Below are positions 204 to 14,740 of a stretch of 64,000 bases of DNA, in pieces. Both the position numbers and the translations under genes were made by a program. Below the pieces are notes generated by a model. It was not told where the DNA came from. It was given only the letters and a program-made list of their open reading frames with translations, and did not search any database. The stretch spans positions 203,717-267,716 of the forward strand of contig JAQUPP010000002.1 in NCBI GenBank assembly GCA_028716665.1, in the 5' to 3' direction. The stretch is from Patescibacteria group bacterium. Its GTDB lineage: Bacteria; Patescibacteriota; Patescibacteriia; UBA2591; JAQUPP01. The first letter of the stretch is position 1. The number at the start of each line of letters is the position of its first letter.

Positions 204-737
204 ATGAGCAACTATATTTTGCAAAATTTAAATTTTATTATCTTCTCGTCGGTTTTATTTTTAACAATTCTGTTTATTATCATTTTATTCTCAATATTCA
301 TAAAAATAATTCATAAAGATAATATATCCGTAAAATTTAATGAACTCCATTTAAAAATTAGAGAGGAAATTAAGTACGCAGTAACTCCTAAATTTATAAA
401 CGTGTCGGCCGAGGTGAATGAGATTACTGATCTTGCGGTTGAAATATGGCGCATTGAACAGCGTATCGCAAAATCCGCTTCAAGCTTATCAGAACAACAA
501 CTTATGGGATTAGATAATTCAGTTCAAAAATTGAAACGGTATCTTTCAAAATACGATATTGAAATCTTGGATTATAAAAATACAAAATATAACGACGGTC
601 TTAATCTTGATATCCTGTCTATTGAAAAAAATTCTTCTTTACCTGAGCCAATCATAAAAGAAATAATCGAGCCAACTATTATGTGTAAGGGCCAGGTTGT
701 TCGTAAAGCAAAAATTATTTTAATAAACAATCATTAA
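204..737 (+). CDS. Membrane-anchored hypothetical protein (one N-terminal TM helix); possible GrpE-like nucleotide-exchange factor, first gene of the Hsp70 operon
   Basis: ORF is 10 bp upstream of the Hsp70 gene. It has an N-terminal hydrophobic helix and then a long helical region. The C-terminal stretch 'EPTIMCKGQVVRKAKIIL' resembles the GrpE C-terminal beta-domain pattern (GY..GR.lRpA.V.V). The similarity is weak and is my inference. Confidence 0.45.
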   Translation: MSNYILQNLNFIIFSSVLFLTILFIIILFSIFIKIIHKDNISVKFNELHLKIREEIKYAVTPKFINVSAEVNEITDLAVEIWRIEQRIAKSASSLSEQQLMGLDNSVQKLKRYLSKYDIEILDYKNTKYNDGLNLDILSIEKNSSLPEPIIKEIIEPTIMCKGQVVRKAKIILINNH

Positions 738-746
738 TTTGTTAAT

Positions 747-3251
747 ATGGCTAATCAACAAAACATTTCAATAGGTATTGATCTTGGAACAACCAATTCG
801 TCTGTTGCCATCAATAACAACGGTAACATCGAAATCATAAAAAGGGCGGGGGGCGTGGAATATACGCCGTCCGTTTTTGGCTTTAATAGAGATGAAAATA
901 AAGTAGTTGGCCAAAAGGCTTATGAGAGTTTTTATAGATCTGCAGACGTAAAAAACTACAAACCGGAAGTAAAAAGATTGATGGGCTCTTCAGAGAAGTT
1001 TCACTTCGAGAGAGTAAATATAGACATGGGGCCGGAAGAAATATCTGCTGAAATCCTTCAGAGCCTAAAAGAGGACATTCTAAGAAAATATCCAAACTTT
1101 AATACTGTAGCCGCCGTAATTACGGTTCCAGCCGCTTTCTCTGTATTACAGTCGGAGGCAACTAAACGGGCTGGTAATCTTGCCGGATTTAAACACGTAG
1201 TTTTATTACAAGAACCTATCGCTGCGGCTGCTGCTTACGGCTCCACAAATATCAAGAATGAAAACTGGCTCATTTACGACTTTGGTGGTGGCACATTTGA
1301 TGTTGCATTAATTGCTTCCAAAGACAGAGCGCTTTCAGTGCTTGGCCATAACGGTGACAATTTCCTTGGTGGTAAAAACTTTGATTTAGAGATTGTCGAT
1401 AAAATAATAGTACCAAAAATCTTAGAGAAGTTTTCCGTCAAAAACTTCAACAGGAATAATGAAAAGTATATAAGTGCCTTCTCTCGATTAAAGTTCTCTG
1501 CAGAGACGGCTAAAATAGAACTCTCTGAATATAATAAAACCTCAATCGTGGTAGAAAATGTCGGGAAGGACGATGAGGATAAGGAGATTTTTCTCTCCAT
1601 TAATTTTACGAGAAAAGAATTTGAAAATCTTATCAAACCAATGGTTGACCGCACTATCGAGCTTTCTAGGAAAACCCTGAAAGATGCCGGCATTAAGAGT
1701 GGTTCTGTTGCTAAAGTGATTCTCGTTGGTGGTCCGACTCAGATTCCATATATTCGAGAAAGAATAGAGAATGATCTCAAAATAACTGCTGATGCGTCTG
1801 TTGATCCTTTAACTGTCGTTGCGAGAGGTGCTTGCGTGTTTGGTATCGGCCAGAAGATTCCAAAGGAATTCCAAGAAAATGATGGTAAAAAACTCCGAGA
1901 AGGAACTCTTTCTATTGATCTAAATTACGATTCCGTTACTTCTGACACAGAGGCAACGATCGCGGGAATCATAGAAGACCTCAAAGATGCTAAGGATGAA
2001 TATTATGTACAAATTCAATCTGACAGTGGCTTTTATAACGGTTCAAAGAAAAAACTAAAAGGCGGTAAATTTTTTGACACAGTTTCTGTCGAGCCGAATA
2101 AGTCTAATGTTTACTGGATTTATCTTTTTGACAAAGAAGGTAATTCTGTTCCAGTTGATCAAGATTCTTTTACCATTACTCAGGGTCAGACGATATCGGG
2201 TATACCCTTGTCCCATTCGGTAAAAATAGTTGTGGTTCAAAAGGATTATACGAGGAATGTGGCTTTTAATATTTGTGACCTAGTTTTTGATAAAGGGTCA
2301 ATACTTCCTATTAAAAAAACTTTATATGTGTATAAAACATCAAGAAAGCTAAAGAAGGGCGAAGAGAATGATCTTGATATTATAGTGGTTGAAGGAGAAT
2401 CCGATATGCCAGATCGTAATGGATTTTTATGCAAAGTGGGTATCCCTGGCAAGGATCTACCCCATGATCTTCCCGAAGGAACTCCGGTAGAAATAACTGT
2501 TGTGATGAATGAATCACAAGAAGTTTTTGTTACTGCTCATATTCCACTGATTGATTTTACTGTTAATGCTCGCTCCACTTTTCACAATGAGACAATTGAT
2601 CTTAAGAATATCGAACAGGATTTAGAAATTCAAAAAGAAAGAGCAAAGGTTGTCTCTGAAAATTTGTCGCCCGATGAAAGAAAAACAATTGATAATGATA
2701 TTCAATCCGCCCAAACGAGCGTTAATAATTCTTCCATAGACGAAGATGAAAAAATGAAAGCGAATAAACAAATTAAAGATATTAAGATTGCGTTGGATAA
2801 AATTGAAAAAGAAAAGGAAATGCCTCAACTGGTTAAGGAATTTAAAGATGGTATTCAAGATACACAATCGATCATCAATGACTACGCAGATGAAAAAGAC
2901 AAAGATATAAACAATGATCAATTAAATAAGCTCATTAAAGAAGGAGAGAAAGCAATAGCCGATAATGATAAATCTCTTTTGATTCGGACCAATGAACAAA
3001 TTAACGAACTTCGCTCAAAAGCCGTTTATTCTAACCCGGCCACATGGATTCATCAGTTTAAAAAAATTACTGATAGCAAGCCAGACTTTACTAATGAAAA
3101 AGAAGCAAAGTATTATATTGAAAAGGGCAAAAGAGCGATTGAACTTGGTGATGTCGATGAGATAAAACGTTGCGTCCGTAATTTGTCGCTGTTACTCCCG
3201 TCTGATGTACAAGAAAAAATAAAAGATAATCTTTCGGGCATTACCCGCTAA
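747..3251 (+). CDS. Non-canonical Hsp70-family ATPase (DnaK-like nucleotide-binding domain plus about 460 aa of divergent C-terminal extension)
   Basis: Hsp70 NBD signatures are all present: phosphate-1 'IGIDLGTTNSSVA', connect-1 'QEPIAAAAAYG', phosphate-2 'YDFGGGTFDVAL', 'VLGHNGDNFLGG', and the adenosine motif 'VILVGGPTQIPYI'. At 834 aa it is longer than DnaK and lacks a canonical substrate-binding-domain sequence. Confidence 0.85.
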   Translation: MANQQNISIGIDLGTTNSSVAINNNGNIEIIKRAGGVEYTPSVFGFNRDENKVVGQKAYESFYRSADVKNYKPEVKRLMGSSEKFHFERVNIDMGPEEISAEILQSLKEDILRKYPNFNTVAAVITVPAAFSVLQSEATKRAGNLAGFKHVVLLQEPIAAAAAYGSTNIKNENWLIYDFGGGTFDVALIASKDRALSVLGHNGDNFLGGKNFDLEIVDKIIVPKILEKFSVKNFNRNNEKYISAFSRLKFSAETAKIELSEYNKTSIVVENVGKDDEDKEIFLSINFTRKEFENLIKPMVDRTIELSRKTLKDAGIKSGSVAKVILVGGPTQIPYIRERIENDLKITADASVDPLTVVARGACVFGIGQKIPKEFQENDGKKLREGTLSIDLNYDSVTSDTEATIAGIIEDLKDAKDEYYVQIQSDSGFYNGSKKKLKGGKFFDTVSVEPNKSNVYWIYLFDKEGNSVPVDQDSFTITQGQTISGIPLSHSVKIVVVQKDYTRNVAFNICDLVFDKGSILPIKKTLYVYKTSRKLKKGEENDLDIIVVEGESDMPDRNGFLCKVGIPGKDLPHDLPEGTPVEITVVMNESQEVFVTAHIPLIDFTVNARSTFHNETIDLKNIEQDLEIQKERAKVVSENLSPDERKTIDNDIQSAQTSVNNSSIDEDEKMKANKQIKDIKIALDKIEKEKEMPQLVKEFKDGIQDTQSIINDYADEKDKDINNDQLNKLIKEGEKAIADNDKSLLIRTNEQINELRSKAVYSNPATWIHQFKKITDSKPDFTNEKEAKYYIEKGKRAIELGDVDEIKRCVRNLSLLLPSDVQEKIKDNLSGITR

Positions 3252-3256
3252 ACCAT

Positions 3257-4891
3257 ATGTCATCTACACTCAAAAACAACGCATATCACATCCTTGGACT
3301 AGATACTTCTGCTAGTGAGAAAGATATTCTTAAACGCTCAAAGGAGATTATTAATCGTCTTAAGGCTGATGACACTCCTGACTACGATTTAGATATTGGA
3401 TTGTTTAAAGATTTTCGGACAGAGGATGCAGTAAAAGATGCCCTGCAGCGACTCCAAGCTTCCAAGAAACGGATCAAAGAATATTTCTTTTGGTTTCAGA
3501 TAGCAGATAGCGTCGATGAGCAGGTACTGGGTCTGTTTAAATTTAAAGATTACTTGAATGCCATTCGCACTTGGCAGAATGTGGCCGAAGGTCAAAGTAC
3601 GAAAGCTTTCTCTTATAAGAAGAATCTTGCTATTTTGTATTGCCTTGTACTCTCTGCCGAGGATGATAAAGACTATCTAAGAAGTTCCTTAGTTGCATGG
3701 AAAGAACTTATAGACTCAGATAAATTTTGGACTTTTTTTTCTGAAGTCTACAAACTTCATGATGAACAAACTGCCAGCGAAGATATTATTTTTGATTTCA
3801 AAAAGCATGTAGTAAGTTATCTGGCCGATATTTATACGGATTTATATCAAACCCATAAAAATGTAGATTATATTAGTCAATTTCAAAAAGTTTTTTCAGT
3901 AAAAGGTGAGCGAATAGAAAAAAACGTTTTAGAACCAGCATACCAAATGATTAATAATGCCGTTGATGAACTTGAAAAAATGGAAGTGAGTAAGGATAGT
4001 ATATTTGATAAAGAAGAGTCAGAAACAATCAAGAGGCTTATTACTACAATACAGAAGGAACTCAATCAACTGATTGATTTAAGACTCTATGACGATAGTC
4101 AGACCAAAATAATGCGGGATCGCTCGGCTAATGCCTTACGATCTATTGCTTTGGATTTACACAATAACTTAAGCGAGCTTGATAAATCTCGAGGACTTTT
4201 AGAGGTAGCAATTAAGTTCGCTGGTATGGAATCCTTGAAATACGAACTTCAAGGTCAACTCGAACAAATCCAAAAAAATATCAAAGACGATGCAGAAAAT
4301 TCTCTTACCATAGACGTACCGGGCACGTTTGGGAGAGGTACGGTTATTTTTAAGAATAACTATCTTGAATACAATAACAAGAAAATATTCTATAAAGACG
4401 CGACAAGTATTTCTTATCATGCCCATTCGCAGTCAATAAACTTTATTCCGGCTTCACAATCGTTCAGTTACATGGTTGCTTCGCCAAATGAGACTATTTC
4501 ATTCTCATTTGGAACTACCCTCTATATTGGTCACAAAACAATGCAAGAGGTGTGGGGAAAGTTGATTGGGCTTTCAGAGGGACTAATTGAGTCACATATT
4601 ATAGAAAGTATGGTCGATCAAATTTTTGATCGCGATAAACCCATAACCATTGGTCGTATTGAATTCTCCAAACAAGGATATTCACAAACCAAATCCAAGC
4701 TATTTGGCAAGAGCGAGAAAGAGATAGTTTACTGGACGGATACTATTTACACCCCAAAGTTCAGTTCCGGAATGGTAGTTTTATGGAAAGATAAAAACGG
4801 AGTGAGTCAACAATTTACCACAATAGCGATGTCGACGCCAAATGCGGTTGTAATACCAGGGTTAGTTAAAGCATGCATTAATCGTCTATAA
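3257..4891 (+). CDS. J-like domain protein (degenerate HPD->TPD) with a large helical C-terminal domain
   Basis: The N-terminus 'AYHILGLDTSASEKDILKRSKEIINRLKADDTPD' aligns to J-domain helices I-II and the HPD loop, with His replaced by Thr. The gene starts 6 bp after the Hsp70 stop. It has no DnaJ zinc finger or G/F region. Confidence 0.65.
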   Translation: MSSTLKNNAYHILGLDTSASEKDILKRSKEIINRLKADDTPDYDLDIGLFKDFRTEDAVKDALQRLQASKKRIKEYFFWFQIADSVDEQVLGLFKFKDYLNAIRTWQNVAEGQSTKAFSYKKNLAILYCLVLSAEDDKDYLRSSLVAWKELIDSDKFWTFFSEVYKLHDEQTASEDIIFDFKKHVVSYLADIYTDLYQTHKNVDYISQFQKVFSVKGERIEKNVLEPAYQMINNAVDELEKMEVSKDSIFDKEESETIKRLITTIQKELNQLIDLRLYDDSQTKIMRDRSANALRSIALDLHNNLSELDKSRGLLEVAIKFAGMESLKYELQGQLEQIQKNIKDDAENSLTIDVPGTFGRGTVIFKNNYLEYNNKKIFYKDATSISYHAHSQSINFIPASQSFSYMVASPNETISFSFGTTLYIGHKTMQEVWGKLIGLSEGLIESHIIESMVDQIFDRDKPITIGRIEFSKQGYSQTKSKLFGKSEKEIVYWTDTIYTPKFSSGMVVLWKDKNGVSQQFTTIAMSTPNAVVIPGLVKACINRL

Positions 4892-4895
4892 ATAC

Positions 4896-5549
4896 ATGGA
4901 AAATGATAAAAAACATTTGGATATCGACCTTGAATTCCTTGATAAAAAGGAGCCGACTAGAGTTACACCGCCTAAGCTAGAATCTCCTAAGGGTAGCGAA
5001 CCAAACTGGCGATATTACGATAAAGACAAGGCTAATGCTAATTCCGGCTCTGGTAAAAAATATAAATGGAAAAATATTTTAATAATAGGTGGCGTTGTTA
5101 TATTCTTTGGCTGGGTTATTTTTTCAAATAGTAACTCAAAGAATGATACTAATACCGGAAGCTATACACCACCTAGTGTAAATCAAGTGTCGTCGAATAG
5201 TAATACGGTTGTGATAGGTGAATATAGATGTTTAAGTTATAACTACGATAGAGCAGTCGCACTTACTCCCAGTGAAAGTGAACAGCAAATAGATACCGCC
5301 AGAAATGACTTGGAATATAAAAGTAATGAGCTTGATCGTTTGAAAAATAAAATTGATAGTTCTTATGTGGATGAATACTCATCGCAATATGAGATTAATC
5401 AATACAATGAGACGGTGAACGATTATAATATTAAACTTACTTCATATAAGCGAGACGAGGCAAATTTTAATTCGCGGGTTGAAAGATATAATACCCAAAT
5501 TGAAGCCCATAATAATTATTTAAGAAATAATTGCACACTTAATAGATAA
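4896..5549 (+). CDS. Single-pass membrane protein with a C-terminal coiled coil
   Basis: TM helix 'ILIIGGVVIFFGWVIF' is followed by an Asn/Ser-rich linker and a heptad-like helical region. The gene sits in 5-bp gaps between the J-like protein and the AAA ATPase. Confidence 0.55.
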   Translation: MENDKKHLDIDLEFLDKKEPTRVTPPKLESPKGSEPNWRYYDKDKANANSGSGKKYKWKNILIIGGVVIFFGWVIFSNSNSKNDTNTGSYTPPSVNQVSSNSNTVVIGEYRCLSYNYDRAVALTPSESEQQIDTARNDLEYKSNELDRLKNKIDSSYVDEYSSQYEINQYNETVNDYNIKLTSYKRDEANFNSRVERYNTQIEAHNNYLRNNCTLNR

Positions 5550-5553
5550 AGTT

Positions 5554-6630
5554 ATGACAACATTAACGAAACCAATTCTCTATAATGGATTCAAAGTCAA
5601 AGACGGGTTAACCGTCAAAAATCGCATTGAGCGAATTTTCTTTACCGAAGTATATGCGTTATCTGACGGATCTTTTTTATACTTATTTTTTAATCTTAAA
5701 CCAAACGAGATATTTGATCGTCGCGAAAAATACGACCTTGTTAGAATAAAAAAAGAAGGAGAGGAATTACCTGGTGTTATTGTTAAGGATTATTCGAATC
5801 GTCAATTATTAACAGCTATTGAAGATCTAACTACGACAAAAGGTTTTGATTGTGTCGCTGGAATGGATAAATTAAAAACTTTTTTAATTAAAAAAGTTAT
5901 TGAACCACTTCGAAATCCTGAAAAATTTAAGAAATACAGACTCTCAATTCCAAACGGTATTTTACTGTACGGACCACCCGGATGCGGAAAAACATTTATT
6001 GTCAACAAACTGGCAGAAGAATTGGGATACAACTTTGTTGAATTAAAACCCTCATCGGTTGCAGTTCCTTATGTTCACGGTGCTGTTAATAAGATTGCCG
6101 AACTTTTTGAAAGGGCAAAATTACAAGCACCGTCAATTGTATTTATTGATGATGCCGAAGCACTTATACCAAAAACAGAAGAGCTATCATTTAGTGCGGA
6201 TATAAAAAAAGAAGAAATTAACCAATTTAAACTAGAACTAAATAATATTGGAGAGAAGAAAATTCTTGTTGTTTATGCAACAAACTGGCCAGAAATGATT
6301 GATTTAGCAATACTTAGAGGCGGAAGAACGGATTATAAGATATATGTTCCTGCGCCAGATTTTGATGCTAGAAAGGGACTATTTATAAATTTTCTTTCAG
6401 GAAGACCCTGTGGCAAAGAAATTGATATAGAAAAATTAGCAAAGATGACAAATAATTATGCGAGTACCGATATTGAACTTATAGTTAAAAATGCGGCTTA
6501 CGTGGCATTAGAGTTGGAAAAAAATATTGATGAAAAAATGTTAATTAAATCAATAAACAAACTTAATTCATCAATTTCGCCAGAACAAATTCGACATTAC
6601 GAACAACTTAGTGGTATGGAAAGGTGGTAG
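5554..6630 (+). CDS. AAA+ ATPase (classic AAA clade, FtsH/CDC48/Vps4-like ATPase domain)
   Basis: Walker A 'LLYGPPGCGKTF', Walker B 'IVFIDDAEAL', and the second region of homology 'ATNWPEMIDLAILRGGRTDYKIYVPAPD'. An N-terminal domain of about 110 aa is not recognised. Confidence 0.85.
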   Translation: MTTLTKPILYNGFKVKDGLTVKNRIERIFFTEVYALSDGSFLYLFFNLKPNEIFDRREKYDLVRIKKEGEELPGVIVKDYSNRQLLTAIEDLTTTKGFDCVAGMDKLKTFLIKKVIEPLRNPEKFKKYRLSIPNGILLYGPPGCGKTFIVNKLAEELGYNFVELKPSSVAVPYVHGAVNKIAELFERAKLQAPSIVFIDDAEALIPKTEELSFSADIKKEEINQFKLELNNIGEKKILVVYATNWPEMIDLAILRGGRTDYKIYVPAPDFDARKGLFINFLSGRPCGKEIDIEKLAKMTNNYASTDIELIVKNAAYVALELEKNIDEKMLIKSINKLNSSISPEQIRHYEQLSGMERW

Positions 6631-6703
6631 TTTTAGGTGATGACGCACCAATGAAATTGGTACTGGTATCTTTAGGGGAATTAGCATTATAACTTTTAAA
6701 CAA

Positions 6704-7525
6704 ATGAAGAACTGTCAATTTTGTAAAAATTCTATCACCGACAATAATGACATTTGTCCTTATTGTCGGCGGGTTTTGGTTGAAAGAATTTATTCTAATT
6801 CAAAACACACATCACACACTGTCAATCAAGGCGCAAAAATCTCGATTAATAGAAAATTAAAAAATTATTTTAAGCAACTAAGCAATAAATTTAAAAAAAT
6901 AAAATGGAATAATTTTAAAAAATATATTCCAATTCTTGCTCTACTACTGTTAATTATTTTTATCAGCCTCCAAAAAGAAAAAAATAACACGCATACAACT
7001 TATAGTCATACTCCAGTTTCGGTTATTCCAAGCAACGAGAATTCATCGATTAAATTGAGTGATACTCCAGTGGCTCAAATCAAAGATCCCAAAAACTATA
7101 TTTCATTGCCCAATGGCACACCTCTATCCAAAAATACTTATTATTTTAATGGATTGGGACAATTAAAAATAGACAATGGGACGAGCCTAGATGCTATAGC
7201 TAAACTAGTAGATATCACAACCAATAAATCGATTCTTACAGTATATATAAAAGCTAATAGTACTTATGATATTAATAAAATATTAGATGGCAATTATAAA
7301 CTATTCTTTAATCTCGGAAATGATTGGAGCACAGAAGTTAAGGCGTTCGCCGTAAATTCTAGCTATGAAGTTTTTAAAGAAAATTTTGACTTTACTACAT
7401 CAGAGTATAGAGAAGGCGATTATATACGCACACGATATATAACTTTTAGCGTAACATTAAATCCTGTAATTGGCGGACAAGCTAAAACAGAAGAAATTAA
7501 CGCGGTAGAATTCGGTGGCTATTAA
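6704..7525 (+). CDS. Zinc-ribbon / TM / extracytoplasmic-domain protein
   Basis: N-terminal 'CQFCKNS...CPYCRR' zinc ribbon, one TM helix 'ILALLLLIIFISL', and a C-terminal beta-rich domain of about 180 aa. Confidence 0.55.
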   Translation: MKNCQFCKNSITDNNDICPYCRRVLVERIYSNSKHTSHTVNQGAKISINRKLKNYFKQLSNKFKKIKWNNFKKYIPILALLLLIIFISLQKEKNNTHTTYSHTPVSVIPSNENSSIKLSDTPVAQIKDPKNYISLPNGTPLSKNTYYFNGLGQLKIDNGTSLDAIAKLVDITTNKSILTVYIKANSTYDINKILDGNYKLFFNLGNDWSTEVKAFAVNSSYEVFKENFDFTTSEYREGDYIRTRYITFSVTLNPVIGGQAKTEEINAVEFGGY

Positions 7526-7648
7526 AAATAGATAAGAATAAAATAAGATAATACGGTTTACTTTAAAGAGGTGAGATAAAATCTCACCTCTTTAAATTGA
7601 ATAAATACAAAAATCTGCTATAATGAAAACAAAGTTTAGAAAATAAAT

Positions 7649-8761
7649 ATGACAAAAATATATTTTACAAGATATTTTATAGAAACTCCTAACTCTGTTG
7701 GTAATCGTAGAAATATAGAATCAGGTAAGATTTTGGGGTTGAAATTTAAGCTAGGTAGTAATGAAATATCTTTCTATGATCATGATAAAGGTCTTTCTTC
7801 TGATTGTTATATTGAAGCAGACTCCTTGAACGATGCTGAGAATAAATCGAAGGTTTTTATAGAAAACATTTTAAACTTAATTGATCTCTCAATGTCATCT
7901 GCCTCAGCATCTCCCCAATTTATAACATCTTATAATGCTTCTTCTAATTTGCCCATCAGAGAATATAAGCAAATTTTATATGTTCCTATACGAGAAAGAA
8001 ATATCGCAGTGATTGATCAAGATTTCTTCGGCAAATTATTTAACCTTCTTGATAAAAATAAAGACAAAAGAACGGAAATGGCTATATCTTGGTTAAGAAA
8101 GGGGTACCTTGAGCAAAAACATGTTGATAAATTTATTGCTTTTTGGACTGGATTAGAATCTATAAATGAGTTATTATGTGATTTATTTATTATTCCTCAG
8201 GAGGAAAGGAAATTAAAATGTAAAAAATGCGGTGAAGTCCTTCATCCAATTACAACCGGAATTAAAAAATTATTTATTGATGAGATAAAAATTAACGATA
8301 AAAAATTTGAAGATATAAGAAAAGCAAGGGGCAAACTTTTACATGGTGGTCCATTAGATAATATTTTTATTAATGAAATTAAAGAATATAATCCTATTGT
8401 TAAAAAAACTTTAATAGTGGGATTAGGTAAATTATTAGGGATGGAAGGAAAAGATATAGATAAAATAATTAAACAAAAATCTAATTTATATAATGAAACA
8501 ATCAGATTTATTATTAAGGCGAATTTAGTAAATTTTGAACCGCCCAAAATTAACGAATTTGGCAAACAACCTAAAATAGATTTAATTGAGGAAAATTTAT
8601 TAAATCGTATAATAGATAGCAAAGGAAAACTGAGTTTAAAATTAGAAACAACGTTAAAATTAAATGCCAATTTTAATAATATAACCTTTGAAGTATGGGG
8701 CGAGGATAATACTTGTATAAAAAGTATCAAGATTGATGATATCAAGAAAGTAACTGAATAA
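7649..8761 (+). CDS. Hypothetical protein with a candidate HEPN-like Rx4H motif and a CxxC pair
   Basis: 'DIRKARGKLLHGG' contains R-x4-H, and 'CKKCGEVLHP' is present. The gene has its own promoter (TTGAAT-16-TATAAT at about 7596-7623) after a terminator hairpin, and the region is very AT-rich. Confidence 0.5.
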   Translation: MTKIYFTRYFIETPNSVGNRRNIESGKILGLKFKLGSNEISFYDHDKGLSSDCYIEADSLNDAENKSKVFIENILNLIDLSMSSASASPQFITSYNASSNLPIREYKQILYVPIRERNIAVIDQDFFGKLFNLLDKNKDKRTEMAISWLRKGYLEQKHVDKFIAFWTGLESINELLCDLFIIPQEERKLKCKKCGEVLHPITTGIKKLFIDEIKINDKKFEDIRKARGKLLHGGPLDNIFINEIKEYNPIVKKTLIVGLGKLLGMEGKDIDKIIKQKSNLYNETIRFIIKANLVNFEPPKINEFGKQPKIDLIEENLLNRIIDSKGKLSLKLETTLKLNANFNNITFEVWGEDNTCIKSIKIDDIKKVTE

Positions 8762-8786
8762 ACAATAGAAAAATATATTAAGTAAT

Positions 8787-9404
8787 ATGACCATAGAAAA
8801 TTCTTTAAAACATTTAGAATCTTTAAAAGAAAGTTACATCAAGATAACCAAGGAGATGCTACAAGCGAATAATGGTAATTTATACTCATTTGATTTGTTT
8901 ATTCTTGGAATAATCAAGAGGTCTATTTTGTTGACAACGGGATTTTGTACATTAGTGCGACAGAATAATTTTTTAAGCGCAGCCCCGCTTATTCGATTAC
9001 ATCTAGACAATCTATTACAGATGCACGCGGCTTTTATTGTGAAAAATTCAGATGATTTTTCGTTTAAAAAGATAAAGGGAGAGCAAACAAATAATTTAAA
9101 AGACTTAAAGGGGAATAAAATGACGGATAATTACTTAGCAATGTCACTCTCAGAAATAAAAGAAACTTCGTGGGTTTTAAATTTATACAAAGAAACATCA
9201 AAATTTGTGCACATCAGTGATAAACATATTTTGAGTGTAGTAGAGAAATTAGATGAAGGCGGTGTTATTGATTTTGTTATTTCAGATAAACAAACAATCC
9301 CAGAGAAACACGCCACTGAAGCTGCACAAGCTATGATAAGTATTACTGAACAATTATTTCGGTATGTGTATGGATGGATACATGTAAAAAATAAAAAGTC
9401 ATAA
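8787..9404 (+). CDS. Hypothetical protein
   Basis: ORF in the AT-rich block with no recognisable motifs. Confidence 0.45.
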   Translation: MTIENSLKHLESLKESYIKITKEMLQANNGNLYSFDLFILGIIKRSILLTTGFCTLVRQNNFLSAAPLIRLHLDNLLQMHAAFIVKNSDDFSFKKIKGEQTNNLKDLKGNKMTDNYLAMSLSEIKETSWVLNLYKETSKFVHISDKHILSVVEKLDEGGVIDFVISDKQTIPEKHATEAAQAMISITEQLFRYVYGWIHVKNKKS

Positions 9405-9455
9405 GTGTTTTATGGCTGACTGGCCAACAAAAAATAATTAAATAATTTAAGACAT

Positions 9456-10211
9456 ATGAATATACAAAAACCATTTTATAAGATGTTTAGGCCAAATAAA
9501 CAGAAGGATGGATATTTTGGGGATTACGTTATTGATTATAGAAACATTTTGGATTGGAGTTCCCCGATTAGGGCCTTTAATTTAATAATTGAAGATTTTA
9601 AAAAAATTTGTGAATATATTGATCCAAGTGATGAGAATACTGCGGTTTATTCTCATAGATTATACGAAATATTTATTAGAACTTGCACGGAATTAGAGTC
9701 CAATATGAAGGCAATATTAAAGGCAAATGGATATGTAAAAACTGGGAGATGGTGGGATATGACTGATTACAAAAAGTTAGAACCTGTATTAAAATTATCT
9801 GATTATGAAGTGTTAATAAATTTTTGGAACAATGGTAGGGGAATGAGTGGTGGTTGCGTCCCTTTTAGAAATTGGGCACAGAGCAAGAGTGGTATACTAG
9901 TTTGGTATCAAGATTACAATAATGTAAAACACTCTAGGGAAGAAAACTTTCATTTAGCTTCTTTGGGTAATTTACTTGACTCAATCTGTGGGTTATTTAT
10001 AATTTTGTTTTCTCAATATGGTGTTCAAATTTTTAATCCCTACCAAATTGTAAAGAGTTATGACGAAGATGATTTGGGTAAAATAATTTCTAAAGATTCC
10101 TTTATATTTAGTATCAAACCACCCGAATGGCGCGAAAACGAAAAATACGATTTTGATTGGGATATAATTAGAGCAGAGAAAAATCCTTTTCAGGAGTTTA
10201 AATCATTTTAA
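9456..10211 (+). CDS. Hypothetical protein
   Basis: ORF in the AT-rich block with no recognisable motifs. Confidence 0.45.
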   Translation: MNIQKPFYKMFRPNKQKDGYFGDYVIDYRNILDWSSPIRAFNLIIEDFKKICEYIDPSDENTAVYSHRLYEIFIRTCTELESNMKAILKANGYVKTGRWWDMTDYKKLEPVLKLSDYEVLINFWNNGRGMSGGCVPFRNWAQSKSGILVWYQDYNNVKHSREENFHLASLGNLLDSICGLFIILFSQYGVQIFNPYQIVKSYDEDDLGKIISKDSFIFSIKPPEWRENEKYDFDWDIIRAEKNPFQEFKSF

Positions 10212-10231
10212 AAAAATAGTAAAATAAATTT

Positions 10232-10957
10232 ATGATCGAAATATATTTTGATGGTGCTTGCGAGCCAGTAAATCCCGGTGGTACTGCAAGTTATGGTTAT
10301 TTAATTAAGAGGGACAATCAAATTATTGAGCGCGGTTCAGGTATTATAGGCAAAGGAGAAGGAATGACAAACAATGTGGCCGAGTATTATGGTTTGATCG
10401 AAGGAATAAAAGCTCTTAAAAAATTAAGAATTGAAGAAAAGGTAATGATTTATGGTGATAGTAAAATGGTGTGTTGTATTGTTGCGAAAGAATGGGGATG
10501 GAAAAAGAAAAAGACGGTATGGATGCCCCATGAAACAGCTTTACATTTAAAAAAGTTACTTGATGAAGCCTTAAAATATTTAGAGGGTATGGATTATAAT
10601 ATTCAATGGGTGACGAGAGAGAAGAATCAAGAAGCTGATGATTTATCGAAAGAACCACTTATTAAAGCGGGTATTATTAAATCTATTTACCCTAAATATA
10701 ATTTTACAAAGAAAATAGATAAAGAAAAGGAAAAGCATATCATTAAATCTAAAATTAAGAAAAAACCCCAAGAAGGGGATGCTTGTCCTAAAAATTGTGG
10801 TGGAATTCTTTATTGGGCAAACAGCAAAATGACCCCCAAAAAAATGCGGAGGATTTATCATTTTGAAAAATGGCTTAAGTGTAATAAATGTAGGACTGTT
10901 TTCTTTGATGAAAAATATAAAATTATTCATCAAAATGAAACTAAATCATTATTTTAG
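10232..10957 (+). CDS. RNase H-like (RNase HI fold) protein with a C-terminal zinc ribbon
   Basis: 'IYFDGACEP' supplies the catalytic Asp. 'AEYYGLIEGI' supplies the Glu. 'IYGDSKMV' supplies the second Asp. 'QEADDLSK' contributes the last acidic residue. The C-terminus carries 'CPKNCGG...CNKCR'. Confidence 0.7.
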   Translation: MIEIYFDGACEPVNPGGTASYGYLIKRDNQIIERGSGIIGKGEGMTNNVAEYYGLIEGIKALKKLRIEEKVMIYGDSKMVCCIVAKEWGWKKKKTVWMPHETALHLKKLLDEALKYLEGMDYNIQWVTREKNQEADDLSKEPLIKAGIIKSIYPKYNFTKKIDKEKEKHIIKSKIKKKPQEGDACPKNCGGILYWANSKMTPKKMRRIYHFEKWLKCNKCRTVFFDEKYKIIHQNETKSLF

Positions 10958-11091
10958 TACTTCTCTTATTTTGTTTATTTAAAACAATAGTGAGTAACGC
11001 GGTGGGGTAGACTAACTTCTCGGATTCAAATCCGGTATATAAACATATCCAGTTTGTCTTTGAATTATGGTTCTAACGTCCTCTACGATGC

Positions 11092-11158
11092 GGAGCCAAA
11101 AAAATAACCGCTTATTTAAGCGGTTATTTTTTTATATCCATCGTGGAAGTTAGAACTT
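11092..11158. repeat. Direct repeat copy A: terminator hairpin plus downstream sequence ('ggagccaaaaaaataaccgcttatttaagcggttatttttttata..gtggaagttagaactt')
   Basis: About 90% identical to 14594-14660. It contains the hairpin AACCGCTTA-n-TAAGCGGTT followed by a T-tract. Confidence 0.8.
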
Positions 11159-11182
11159 GTTTTAAATTAGAAAAACAATTGA

Positions 11183-11210
11183 TTGATAAAAAGTCAAATT
11201 ATGATATAAT
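11183..11210 (+). promoter_or_regulatory. Sigma70-type promoter for xseA (TTGATA-16-TGaTATAAT)
   Basis: -35, extended -10 and -10 elements read directly from the sequence. Confidence 0.6.
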
Positions 11211-11348
11211 AAAAAATAAGTGTACGGACAGCTGTCCTGCCTTACTAAATCAATTTTACAATACAGACCTTTACTGAACTGACTAAAAAATGTATTGGTA
11301 TTTGTTCGTGGATAGAAAAGTATAATAATAGAATGAATAATCTAAAAA

Positions 11349-13213: not shown

Positions 13214-14467
13214 ATGAATAAACATACAACAACAATTATTCCTATTGAGCCATGGCTTTATCATTCGCCTAAACTAAAACTCAAAGGATCAATTATAGAT
13301 ATAGGATTAATATGTGAATCTTTAATTTATTATGAAAAAATATTTATTAATATAGATATCCTTTCTAAAAACTTTTTATTTAATGAAATTATAAAATGGT
13401 TTAAACAACAGGATGCATATAAAGATTTTTTACGACTTTTGGACGAGGGTATTATAAATTTTGTTTATCATTCTTTTTTTACATCTCCTATTTTTGATCC
13501 TAGAAATAATACTTATAGTATCTGGAATCTTGAGGACGAAGAATCAAAAGAAAAAGATATTTTTAATTCTAGAGTTTTATATAACGATGAATTGAATAAA
13601 ATAATTAAAGGAAGAGAAAGACAACAACTATATAGAGTAATTGAAAATAAAGTCATTGAATTTAGGGCAGACAAATTCAAAGATGCAGTTGAAAATGCTA
13701 GAGCTGATTACGAAAAAGTAGATACTTGTAATATTATTGTTCAAAGTTTTGTTGATGAATTATATAAAGAATTTGATTTCGGAAAACCACCTGTTATAAG
13801 TAGTAAAATAAATAAAATGGGAGAAAAAATTAATATTTCCTGGAATATTAATTTTGATGAATTAAATAAAAAAACGAATAATAAATTTAAAATAAATCCA
13901 GGGATTCCACTTCATGGAATTGCTCATTGCAACAGGATAATTAAAACAGCGTCGCTTATAGAATCGGATATATGTTTGGGAGAAGTTATGAGCAGTTTAG
14001 TCAATAATAAATTATCTGAAATTAACTTAAAGAATAATGATAAAGTTTTGAATATTATTAAAGAATTAAATCAAGAAGTAGAATTTCCAGATATTAGGGG
14101 TTTGGTAAATAATAACTTAATAACCTTTAAGGATATTCTTGAAATCCGGAAAAAAGCATTGAAGTTTAGGAAATGGCTACAGTGTGAAGGAGAAAGAGAT
14201 AGGGATGCAATAATTGCTTATCATAACGAGGTGGCAGAGGAAGCTAAATTAGAAAAATTTGGCAAAAGTATTTTATCGTTAACAGGTGTAGTGACAGGAG
14301 GATTAATAGGGACAATTGGTGGTCCTATTGGCGGAATAGCGGGAGCAACGATGGGGTATGGAGTAGATAAATTTATTTCTTTAATAAATCAAGAATGGAA
14401 GCCAATAGTTTTTGGAAAATGGCTAACAAAGTATTCTGATAAAATTCAAAAAACGAGACATCCATAA
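13214..14467 (+). CDS. Hypothetical protein with a C-terminal glycine-zipper segment
   Basis: 417-aa ORF. The C-terminus 'GVVTGGLIGTIGGPIGGIAGATMGYGV' is a glycine zipper. No other motifs recognised. Confidence 0.5.
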   Translation: MNKHTTTIIPIEPWLYHSPKLKLKGSIIDIGLICESLIYYEKIFINIDILSKNFLFNEIIKWFKQQDAYKDFLRLLDEGIINFVYHSFFTSPIFDPRNNTYSIWNLEDEESKEKDIFNSRVLYNDELNKIIKGRERQQLYRVIENKVIEFRADKFKDAVENARADYEKVDTCNIIVQSFVDELYKEFDFGKPPVISSKINKMGEKINISWNINFDELNKKTNNKFKINPGIPLHGIAHCNRIIKTASLIESDICLGEVMSSLVNNKLSEINLKNNDKVLNIIKELNQEVEFPDIRGLVNNNLITFKDILEIRKKALKFRKWLQCEGERDRDAIIAYHNEVAEEAKLEKFGKSILSLTGVVTGGLIGTIGGPIGGIAGATMGYGVDKFISLINQEWKPIVFGKWLTKYSDKIQKTRHP

Positions 14468-14593
14468 TTTCCTTTTATATTGTCTCATTTTGTTTGTTTG
14501 AATCCGACCCGTCCCTGTCAGTAGAATCATTAGGCCGACCCTCAGGAACGCTTGCGTGGTCTAGATGCGAAAGCGTTCTGAAACCCGAGAGGG

Positions 14594-14660
14594 GAGCCAA
14601 AAAATAACCGCTTATTCAAGCGGTTATTTTTTTATACTCGTTGTGGAAATTAGAACTTTT
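14594..14660. repeat. Direct repeat copy B (terminator module, paralogous to 11092-11158)
   Basis: Sequence identity read directly. Followed by the promoter TTGACA-17-TGcTATTCT at 14670-14698. Confidence 0.8.
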
Positions 14661-14740
14661 TTAATGAAATTGACAAAAGTGAAAAAATATGCTATTCTAA
14701 TAATAGATAAATAATCAATTAAAAGATTTTTTAAATAAAA

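Follow-up and report, generated by a model that had tools for sequence, protein, structure and literature searches.

A putative mini defence islet of three unrelated single-gene modules in a Patescibacteria genome

Introduction

Are four small genes that follow one another on a single strand, behind what looks like a promoter of their own, one defence system, the remains of one, or a pile of separate genes? This question is raised by a block in a 64,000-nucleotide (nt) stretch of a metagenome-assembled genome (MAG) from the Patescibacteria/Paceibacterota, a group of the candidate phyla radiation (CPR). The whole stretch, whose overall G+C content (GC) is 34.6%, is called the window hereafter. 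Patescibacteria and other CPR bacteria have tiny genomes and, to our knowledge, few defence systems beyond restriction-modification (R-M) have been recognised in them. The block consists of four open reading frames (ORFs) on the forward strand: gene A (7649-8761, 370 amino acids, aa), gene B (8787-9404, 205 aa), gene C (9456-10211, 251 aa) and gene D (10232-10957, 241 aa). They are separated by only 25, 51 and 20 nt, respectively. An earlier reading of this DNA, made without database searches, had given exactly these coordinates and this strand and had proposed an abortive-infection or defence islet.

The explanation preferred here, with a probability of about 0.6, is that A, B and C are three unrelated, independently mobile single-gene modules of defence type, piled up head to tail without an R-M partner. 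They would be genes that ride in or next to R-M loci and other defence hotspots, and that are found here behind their own promoter. The block would thus plausibly be a small defence islet, and its general kind is known already. The islet proposal is supported, by association, by the homologues of A, B and C, which occur in R-M and GmrSD loci, in defence islands, in mobile elements and in the P2 hotspot, but neither gene D nor the base composition lends it support.

Co-occurrence of the genes of the block

Hidden Markov models of the A, B and C families were run across 188 fetched loci (designated by L numbers below). The three families were found together only in this species' own contigs. When they were compared with each other by hhalign, broadened alignments included, all probabilities were below 1%. 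A common origin of A, B and C is ruled out by these values, and a conserved four-gene operon is ruled out by the lack of co-occurrence in the 188 loci. The four genes had been read as the gene content of one islet, and no conserved four-gene system corresponds to that reading. Since A, B and C never stand together elsewhere and share no profile similarity, the block is better regarded as an accretion of single-gene modules than as one system.

Gene A, its restriction context and its protein family

The most informative context is that of A. In four Paceibacterota lineages, its homologues (52-61% identity) are the middle gene of a Mod-A-Res arrangement, in which Mod is an N6_N4_Mtase protein and Res a ResIII/DEAD helicase. 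The intergenic gaps are of 3-16 nt in L091, L111 and L188, and L087 shows the same order with one extra small ORF. Mod and Res flank A in 4 of the 6 A contexts examined (loci L087-94, L111-112 and L188), and the operon, which resembles type III R-M, is often located downstream of radC. The Res proteins of these operons possess a conserved C-terminal P-x3-D...D-x-K nuclease-like segment. Because Res keeps this motif of its own, A supplements the restriction enzyme rather than acting as its nuclease; the possibility that A provides the missing nuclease of a truncated Res was ruled out on the same grounds. The same Mod-X-Res frame is present in L113/L114:58-4776, where a gene resembling SLFN/AlbA_2 takes the place of A. 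With A in four lineages and this other gene in L113/114, the middle slot is a position for variable cargo.

The nearest copy of A (79% identity) belongs to a different island, which contains McrB-like, DUF3800, HATPase, SMODS+SLATT (of the type of cyclic-oligonucleotide-based anti-phage signalling systems, CBASS) and serine recombinase genes. Searches of plasmids and viral contigs gave no matches to A. A 215-aa gene that follows A in L087 was considered as a B homologue and rejected. Small ORFs without annotation beside A or C homologues show weak HEPN matches (L087:8201-8848, HEPN_Apea, E 0.037; L109:7849-8292, HEPN_MAE_28990, E 0.005), which suggests that CPR restriction loci may carry several HEPN-like passengers.

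Identical copies of gene A are found in GCA_028690995.1 and GCA_028713475.1, and NCBI lists a third protein accession. Apart from 55 close homologues, the family comprises at least 600 clusters at 50% identity (profile search against 1.84 billion representatives, E<=1e-3), most of them of about 370 aa and aligned end to end. As B and C each have at least 30 close homologues besides plasmid or phage relatives, the earlier description of these genes as orphans has to be abandoned.

The AlphaFold2 (AF2) model of A, with a predicted local distance difference test (pLDDT) score of 84.8, can be divided into three domains: an N-terminal alpha/beta domain (residues 1-113; 7649-7987), a helical core that resembles MauJ and HEPN domains in weak profile matches (residues 124-275; 8018-8473), and a C-terminal beta domain (residues 284-369; 8498-8755). 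The core carries R227-x4-H232 (RGKLLH; 8327-8344), a candidate catalytic pair, and E170 (8156-8158), a further candidate catalytic residue. It also contains a C191-x2-C194 knuckle (8219-8230) on an inserted beta-hairpin. Both the RKARGKLLH motif and the CxxC pair had been pointed out earlier, and both are present. Neither R227 nor H232 varies in 38 close relatives. In a broader set of 109 relatives, with identities as low as 17%, E170 alone is invariant and conservation is at least 90% for F162, W166, R227 and H232, as would be expected of catalytic residues. With respect to the knuckle, just two cysteines are conserved and the relatives give weak zinc-ribbon and zf-BED profile matches; zinc binding is uncertain.

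Gene A itself matches no Pfam family. However, 28 of the 109 divergent relatives match PF17419 (MauJ, methylamine utilisation protein J) at E<=0.01, and the 116 positions of this profile fall on the central domain of the A family, the one with W-x3-E and R-x4-H. The searchable literature yielded no paper that connects MauJ with HEPN or with defence. HEPN_Cthe2314 is matched by 3 of the 38 close and 1 of the 109 divergent relatives (best E 2.8e-4), and HEPN_Apea by one relative in each of these two sets (E 0.007-0.04). The protein is named 'HEPN domain-containing protein' by NCBI. On the motif and the weak profile matches, A is called HEPN-like here, and it is quite probable that it is a true HEPN protein. 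The sequence-only reading had put A forward as a HEPN-like candidate; its motif is indeed conserved, whereas the profile matches are sub-threshold and a fold match was not obtained, as detailed below.

Gene B

Gene B encodes a divergent DUF5677 protein, as judged from a sub-threshold Pfam match and from alignment. Its match to PF18928 (23.0 bits, E 9.4e-5) covers positions 3-83 of 166, that is, the N-terminal half of the profile, and lies below the cut-off of 27.1 bits. The same profile is matched by 22 of 31 B relatives (best E 4.3e-6), and three relatives have the domain precomputed. The conserved residues of B are R70, D74, Y134, E136, the S138-K-F-x-H142 motif, K146 and H147.

The contexts of B homologues are diverse. 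For instance, one is placed 20 nt downstream of an MmeI-type R-M enzyme gene, another adjoins DUF2130, those on plasmids adjoin integrase or IS110 genes, and one stands alone among housekeeping genes. Enrichment of DUF5677 in the vicinity of serine recombinases, as markers of defence loci, has been reported (PMC12632615). In a conjugative element of a Hymenobacter plasmid (L191:6780-11669), a gene of the B family lies beside a convergent pair annotated as 'ATP-dependent DNA helicase' (1062 aa) and 'RNaseH domain-containing protein' (534 aa).

Gene C

Gene C belongs to an unnamed family of helical proteins, phrog_19461, which it matches at 4e-18; it has no Pfam, NCBIfam or PADLOC match. In an alignment of 42 sequences, residues Y105, P136, W150, Y151, Y154, N155, K158 and H159 are invariant, and C77, T78, E79, E81, D104 and R161 are nearly so. 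Of these residues, C77-T-E79-x-E81, D104 and W150-Y-x2-Y-N-x2-K158-H159-x-R161 (9903-9938) make up the conserved constellation of C. The AF2 model is helical (pLDDT 85.5, predicted template modelling score 0.89). A Foldseek search of BFVD gave a sole match, an uncharacterised phage fragment of C's own family.

In CPR genomes, C is found downstream of a GmrSD_N plus type I R-M locus, and elsewhere it shares an island with GmrSD, NYN-PLD, NUDIX and HicAB genes. Relatives occur on 14 plasmids and 38 IMG/VR viral contigs. The C domain is also found in SEN8, a P2-like Salmonella phage, as gene 1, which is placed between the cos site and the portal gene, with an HNH gene as its neighbour. In P2, this cos-proximal slot carries old and tin, and its role as a defence hotspot has been validated (Rousset et al. 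2022, PMC9122126). The C family is common to CPR bacteria, to proteobacterial and Bacteroides plasmids and to the P2 hotspot next to cos, and it has no significant match to solved structures.

The SEN8 gene pair (L104:128-2142, genes 1-2), which consists of the C-domain gene and the convergent HNH gene, is found at about 92% DNA identity and as a single chromosomal copy in 12 of 5426 complete E. coli genomes, where the genes are annotated as hypothetical and HNH proteins. Four further E. coli genomes have partial or more distant matches. Together they may represent a cargo of two genes, not yet characterised, in the P2 hotspot.

Gene D

The last gene encodes a type 1 RNase H domain (10232-10666) with residues D7, E51, D76 and D136, followed by a C-terminal C4 zinc ribbon, C185-x3-C189...C217-x2-C220 (10784-10891). 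Both features had been recognised from the sequence. The statement that none of the four genes has recognisable housekeeping motifs does not apply to D, which is a clear RNase HI. It matches Pfam RNase_H with 44.7 bits, above the 25.8 cut-off, and NCBIfam RNAseHI_Thmprot (NF041175) at 2.8e-32 (111.5 bits, under the equivalog cut-off of 140 bits). Residues 2-149 align with the RNase HI of Sulfolobus tokodaii (PDB 2EHG) at E 6e-19, and the four acidic catalytic residues are conserved. Unlike the S. tokodaii enzyme (PDB 2EHG, 3ALY), D has a C-terminal extension of about 95 aa composed of a relic of a topoisomerase (Topo)-type finger and the C4 ribbon.

Homologues of D are widespread in Paceibacteria. 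Most of them are proteins of about 190 aa that combine RNase H with a Topo-type C4 finger (CPxCxGxL...GKFGxFYGCSNYPxCxFTKK). In D this finger is reduced to a cysteine-less relic (YPKYNFTKKI) and a different C4 ribbon is present, which is common to the L114 homologue; the homologue in L115 has both zinc fingers (L114:6001-6729, L115:3428-4222 and L116-L136 are D homologues). Their neighbours are mostly repair or housekeeping genes, such as xth and yceG, or an AddA-like helicase-nuclease, and in the window D abuts the repair genes xseAB. None of 36 D-homologue loci contains A, B or C. It is therefore probable that D is the lineage's own RNase HI rather than a defence effector. It is either co-transcribed with the islet or merely adjacent to it, and may not belong to it.

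Base composition and relatives

The block had been described as AT-rich and heavy in AAA, AAT and ATA codons. The drop in GC is real but mild (29.5% against 34.6% in the window), and 5% of windows of the same size are equally low. These are confined to one broad trough, at about 6.4-14.5 kb, which takes in the housekeeping gene xseA (GC at third codon positions, GC3, 18.5%; z -2.4) and a gene of 417 aa that follows xseB. Gene A is the sole GC outlier of the block (27.1%, z -2.2), B, C and D being within about one standard deviation, and GC values equal to or below those of the block genes are seen in xseA and the 417-aa gene. Similarly, the share of the three codons is raised within the block in A alone (z 1.65), and flanking genes show the same rise. 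The codon-usage divergence of the block genes is normal for their length. As the low GC is common to xseA, from which neither GC nor codon usage sets the block apart, composition neither supports nor refutes horizontal acquisition, and it was dropped as evidence of transfer.

The closest XseA relatives are from Parcubacteria/Paceibacterota MAGs. In relatives with 60-82% XseA identity, the block is absent beside xseAB. However, no other neighbouring gene is shared and synteny is eroded everywhere, so that this absence is uninformative. There are no tRNA genes in the window, no direct repeats were found bracketing 7.6-11 kb, and the scan of proteins encoded between 0.2 and 19 kb revealed no integrase.

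Weighing the explanations

Different observations weigh against the view that A, B and C are defence-type modules of this kind. With respect to A, the four MauJ matches inspected singly score 16-20 bits, under the gathering threshold of 28 bits, and every inspected Pfam HEPN or MauJ match of A relatives is below its curated cut-off. A Foldseek search of the AF2 model of A against PDB gave nothing significant, so that a HEPN fold is not demonstrated. For C, the equivalent search was also without significant matches, and the HEPN toxins that recur in it are weak (E>1, probability <=0.35) and do not constitute evidence. Sequence searches of PDB, both single-sequence and profile, found no match for A, B or C. 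The canonical Rx4-6H motif is absent in B, which has S-K-F-x-H...K-H, and in C, which has N-x2-K-H-x-R. The system component models of PADLOC-DB 2.0.0 recognise none of the four genes at E<=1, and NCBIfam and PHROGs yielded nothing beyond the RNase H assignments and the phrog_19461 match of C. A single DUF5677 gene was tried in Enterococcus and was not among the phage-protective ORFs (PMC12632615). Searches of the 64-kb window by tblastn with 13 probe proteins taken from the fetched loci (among them Mod, Res, HsdR/M/S, GmrSD, MmeI, McrB-like, NYN-PLD and SLFN-like) found nothing, and the silencing of a solitary latent toxin is left unexplained by this lack of an R-M relative. Composition gives no independent support for transfer. 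Finally, D homologues lie near Res, HsdR or GmrSD in about four independent loci (L113/114, L121, L136 and L137), for which reason the exclusion of D from the islet is not secure.

These last loci would also suit a rival explanation, in which the four genes form one integrated two-nuclease system made up of a HEPN protein (A) and an RNase H (D), with B and C as sensor or regulator, comparable to the RnlA/LsoA or NamA-HEPN pairs. The tight packing on one strand, between a single promoter-like site and a single terminator, fits such a system, and combinations of HEPN and RNase H folds have been described (PMC3710099). However, it is made highly unlikely by the confinement of the A-B-C combination to this species' contigs, by the score of 0 out of 36 D-homologue loci with any of the three, and by the predominance in the D family of short proteins with a Topo-type finger in housekeeping contexts.

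Another explanation holds that the block is decaying debris, A having been left from a Mod-A-Res operon after loss of the restriction genes and B and C having a similar history, all of them now being neutral passengers. CPR genomes are under reductive pressure, and the flanking of A by Mod and Res in most contexts, together with the failure to find relatives of R-M, GmrSD, MmeI or McrB probes in the window, is in line with such a loss. Nevertheless, A, B and C are full length, keep all family-invariant residues and are tightly packed behind a good promoter-like site. Besides, the 79%-identical A, likewise devoid of flanking R-M genes, has been kept in the defence island of another genome. Decay is thus considered rather unlikely. 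The same can be said, if slightly less strongly, of the proposal that A, B and C do not serve defence, being either RNA-processing or regulatory factors or cargo that serves the mobile element itself (addiction, anti-defence or exclusion of rivals), and that their closeness to R-M genes reflects shared integration hotspots. The presence of C in phage and prophage genomes, where genes can be anti-defence, the integrases and IS elements beside B, the B homologue that stands alone amid housekeeping genes, the lack of protection by the DUF5677 gene tried (PMC12632615) and the origin of the MauJ name in a methylamine-utilisation cluster (Pfam description) all point in that direction. On the other side, gaps of 3-16 nt in Mod-A-Res operons of several lineages argue for co-expression with restriction over chance proximity, and the C domain holds a P2 slot that has been validated as a hotspot of defence genes (PMC9122126). 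The accretion of separate defence-type modules is therefore retained as the preferred explanation.

A possible mode of action

Gene A most likely encodes an RNase of the HEPN superfamily, with a MauJ-like central domain and with E170, R227 and H232 as candidate catalytic residues, and it is usually at home in the middle slot of a tight Mod-A-Res operon. It would act as a latent toxin: once infection is sensed, it would cut cellular or phage RNA (tRNA, mRNA or rRNA) and the infection would be aborted. Its N- and C-terminal domains could be sensor or oligomerisation modules. This model is based on analogy with PrrC/RloC, ApeA and the coupling of immunity to suicide (PMC3710099, PMC3632139). B, as a DUF5677 protein, and C, as a member of the WYxxYNxxKHxR family, might be further stand-alone effectors acting on nucleic acids, a proposal weakly supported by their enzyme-like constellations of conserved polar residues.

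Comparison with known systems

That HEPN toxins can be part of R-M loci has been an established theme since 2013 (Anantharaman et al. 2013, PMC3710099; Makarova et al. 2013, PMC3632139, for the idea of immunity coupled to suicide). Like PrrC, RloC and the ApeA/BMEI1217 family (PMC3710099; PMC3632139), A has an R-x4-H motif in a helical core and is usually encoded inside an R-M operon, with no antitoxin gene nearby. There are also differences. In contrast to PrrC and RloC, A is not fused to an ABC ATPase, and the usual place of its homologues is a type III-like system, with mod on one side and res on the other, rather than a type I hsd locus. Moreover, the A of the window has no R-M partner, and the similarity of A to named HEPN families is sub-threshold.

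The best-studied model for infection sensing and RNA cutting by a solitary A is ApeA, a single-protein HEPN defence that responds to deoxydinucleotides as activators and cuts tRNAs in the anticodon loop (bioRxiv 10.64898/2026.01.26.701840). Both are stand-alone proteins in which non-catalytic domains accompany a HEPN domain or, in the case of A, a HEPN-like core. However, while the core of A is central and flanked on both sides, the HEPN domain of ApeA is C-terminal and follows a beta-rich domain of about 300 aa. Regarding C, the SEN8 protein occupies the old/tin slot of P2, but phage and plasmid relatives are of about 330 aa, have an extra N-terminal segment of about 110 aa, are 26-35% identical to C, and none of them has been characterised. 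In addition, the SEN8 pair is a rare cargo (12-16 of 5426 E. coli genomes).

Implications

What is already known comprises the R-M-riding HEPN toxins and DUF5677 as a defence candidate; the C family, defined by C-T-E-x-E...W-Y-x2-Y-N-x2-K-H-x-R, has no name in Pfam, NCBIfam or PADLOC. It is possible, if doubtful, that two further propositions hold together, namely that the A family defines a three-gene form of type III restriction, Mod-HEPN-Res, which links suicide through RNA cleavage to the restriction of DNA, while A can also work on its own, as in the window, and that the C family is a new helical defence enzyme. If A, B and C are active, CPR bacteria would keep stand-alone abortive-infection effectors, and the MauJ/HEPN-like A family and the C family would be two sizeable uncatalogued families, candidates for defence catalogues. 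The recurrent Mod-A-Res operon offers a clean natural test bed for the old idea of a coupling between restriction and RNA-directed suicide. The present case is an ordinary one of guilt by association, such as has been described from 2013 onwards, and its value is moderate, as a source of experimental candidates.

Signals at the borders of the block

The gene cluster upstream of the block ends at a terminator-like hairpin with a perfect stem of 16 bp and a weak T tract (7562-7597, + strand), in close agreement with the hairpin previously placed at 7565-7593. Its folding energy is -24.5 kcal/mol (z -5.6) and none of 200 shuffled sequences folds as stably, although it is missed by a simple terminator scan. 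It is followed by a promoter-like site on the same strand, TTGAAT-16 nt-(TG)TATAAT (7597-7624), which has 10 of 12 consensus matches and an extended -10 element and ends 25 nt before the start codon of A. The suggestion that the block has its own promoter after the hairpin agrees with this site, which is a consensus match only, such sites being as numerous in the region as in shuffled sequence. The putative A-D transcription unit is closed by a bidirectional terminator hairpin with a perfect stem of 17 bp (11098-11133).

Neighbouring features of the window

This closing hairpin belongs to one of two copies of a 64-nt direct repeat (11099-11162 and 14599-14662, 89% identity), whose core is a perfect bidirectional terminator hairpin. 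The window has just these two copies, against a chance expectation of none. The spacers that contain them (10958-11348 and 14468-14740) can be aligned over about 250 nt and stand on either side of xseA-xseB and the 417-aa gene. Each repeat hairpin is apparently preceded by a G+C-richer stretch of about 100 nt, and stretch and hairpin together fold with z values of -3.7 and -3.0. Neither spacer has an Rfam or tRNA match, and the possibility that the GGATTCAAATCC stretch of spacer 10958-11348 is a remnant of a tRNA or of an attachment (att) site found no support from ARAGORN or Rfam. The repeat-bearing spacers could be small RNAs or a scar of recombination or duplication.

The upstream cluster (204-7525), which had been called an Hsp70 operon, is not the canonical dnaK-grpE-dnaJ set. 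It encodes a GrpE-like protein whose match is sub-threshold (E 5.5e-4), a protein of 834 aa in which just the nucleotide-binding domain of Hsp70 is recognised (residues 9-366), a 544-aa protein with no matches, a 217-aa protein with weak coiled-coil-type matches only, an AAA+ ATPase (CDC48/FtsH-like; PADLOC IetA 1.2e-25) and a 273-aa protein with weak N-terminal zinc-finger or zinc-ribbon matches. Since Hsp70-like proteins are known to occur in conflict systems (PMC11090510), this cluster may be a separate atypical module.

Downstream of xseB, the 417-aa gene (13214-14467) has a GC of 27.5% and a GC3 of 17.5%, being as AT-rich as A. It matches no Pfam family and gives weak matches only (BrxB, E 0.017). 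It is absent beside xseAB in relatives and may be another accessory gene.

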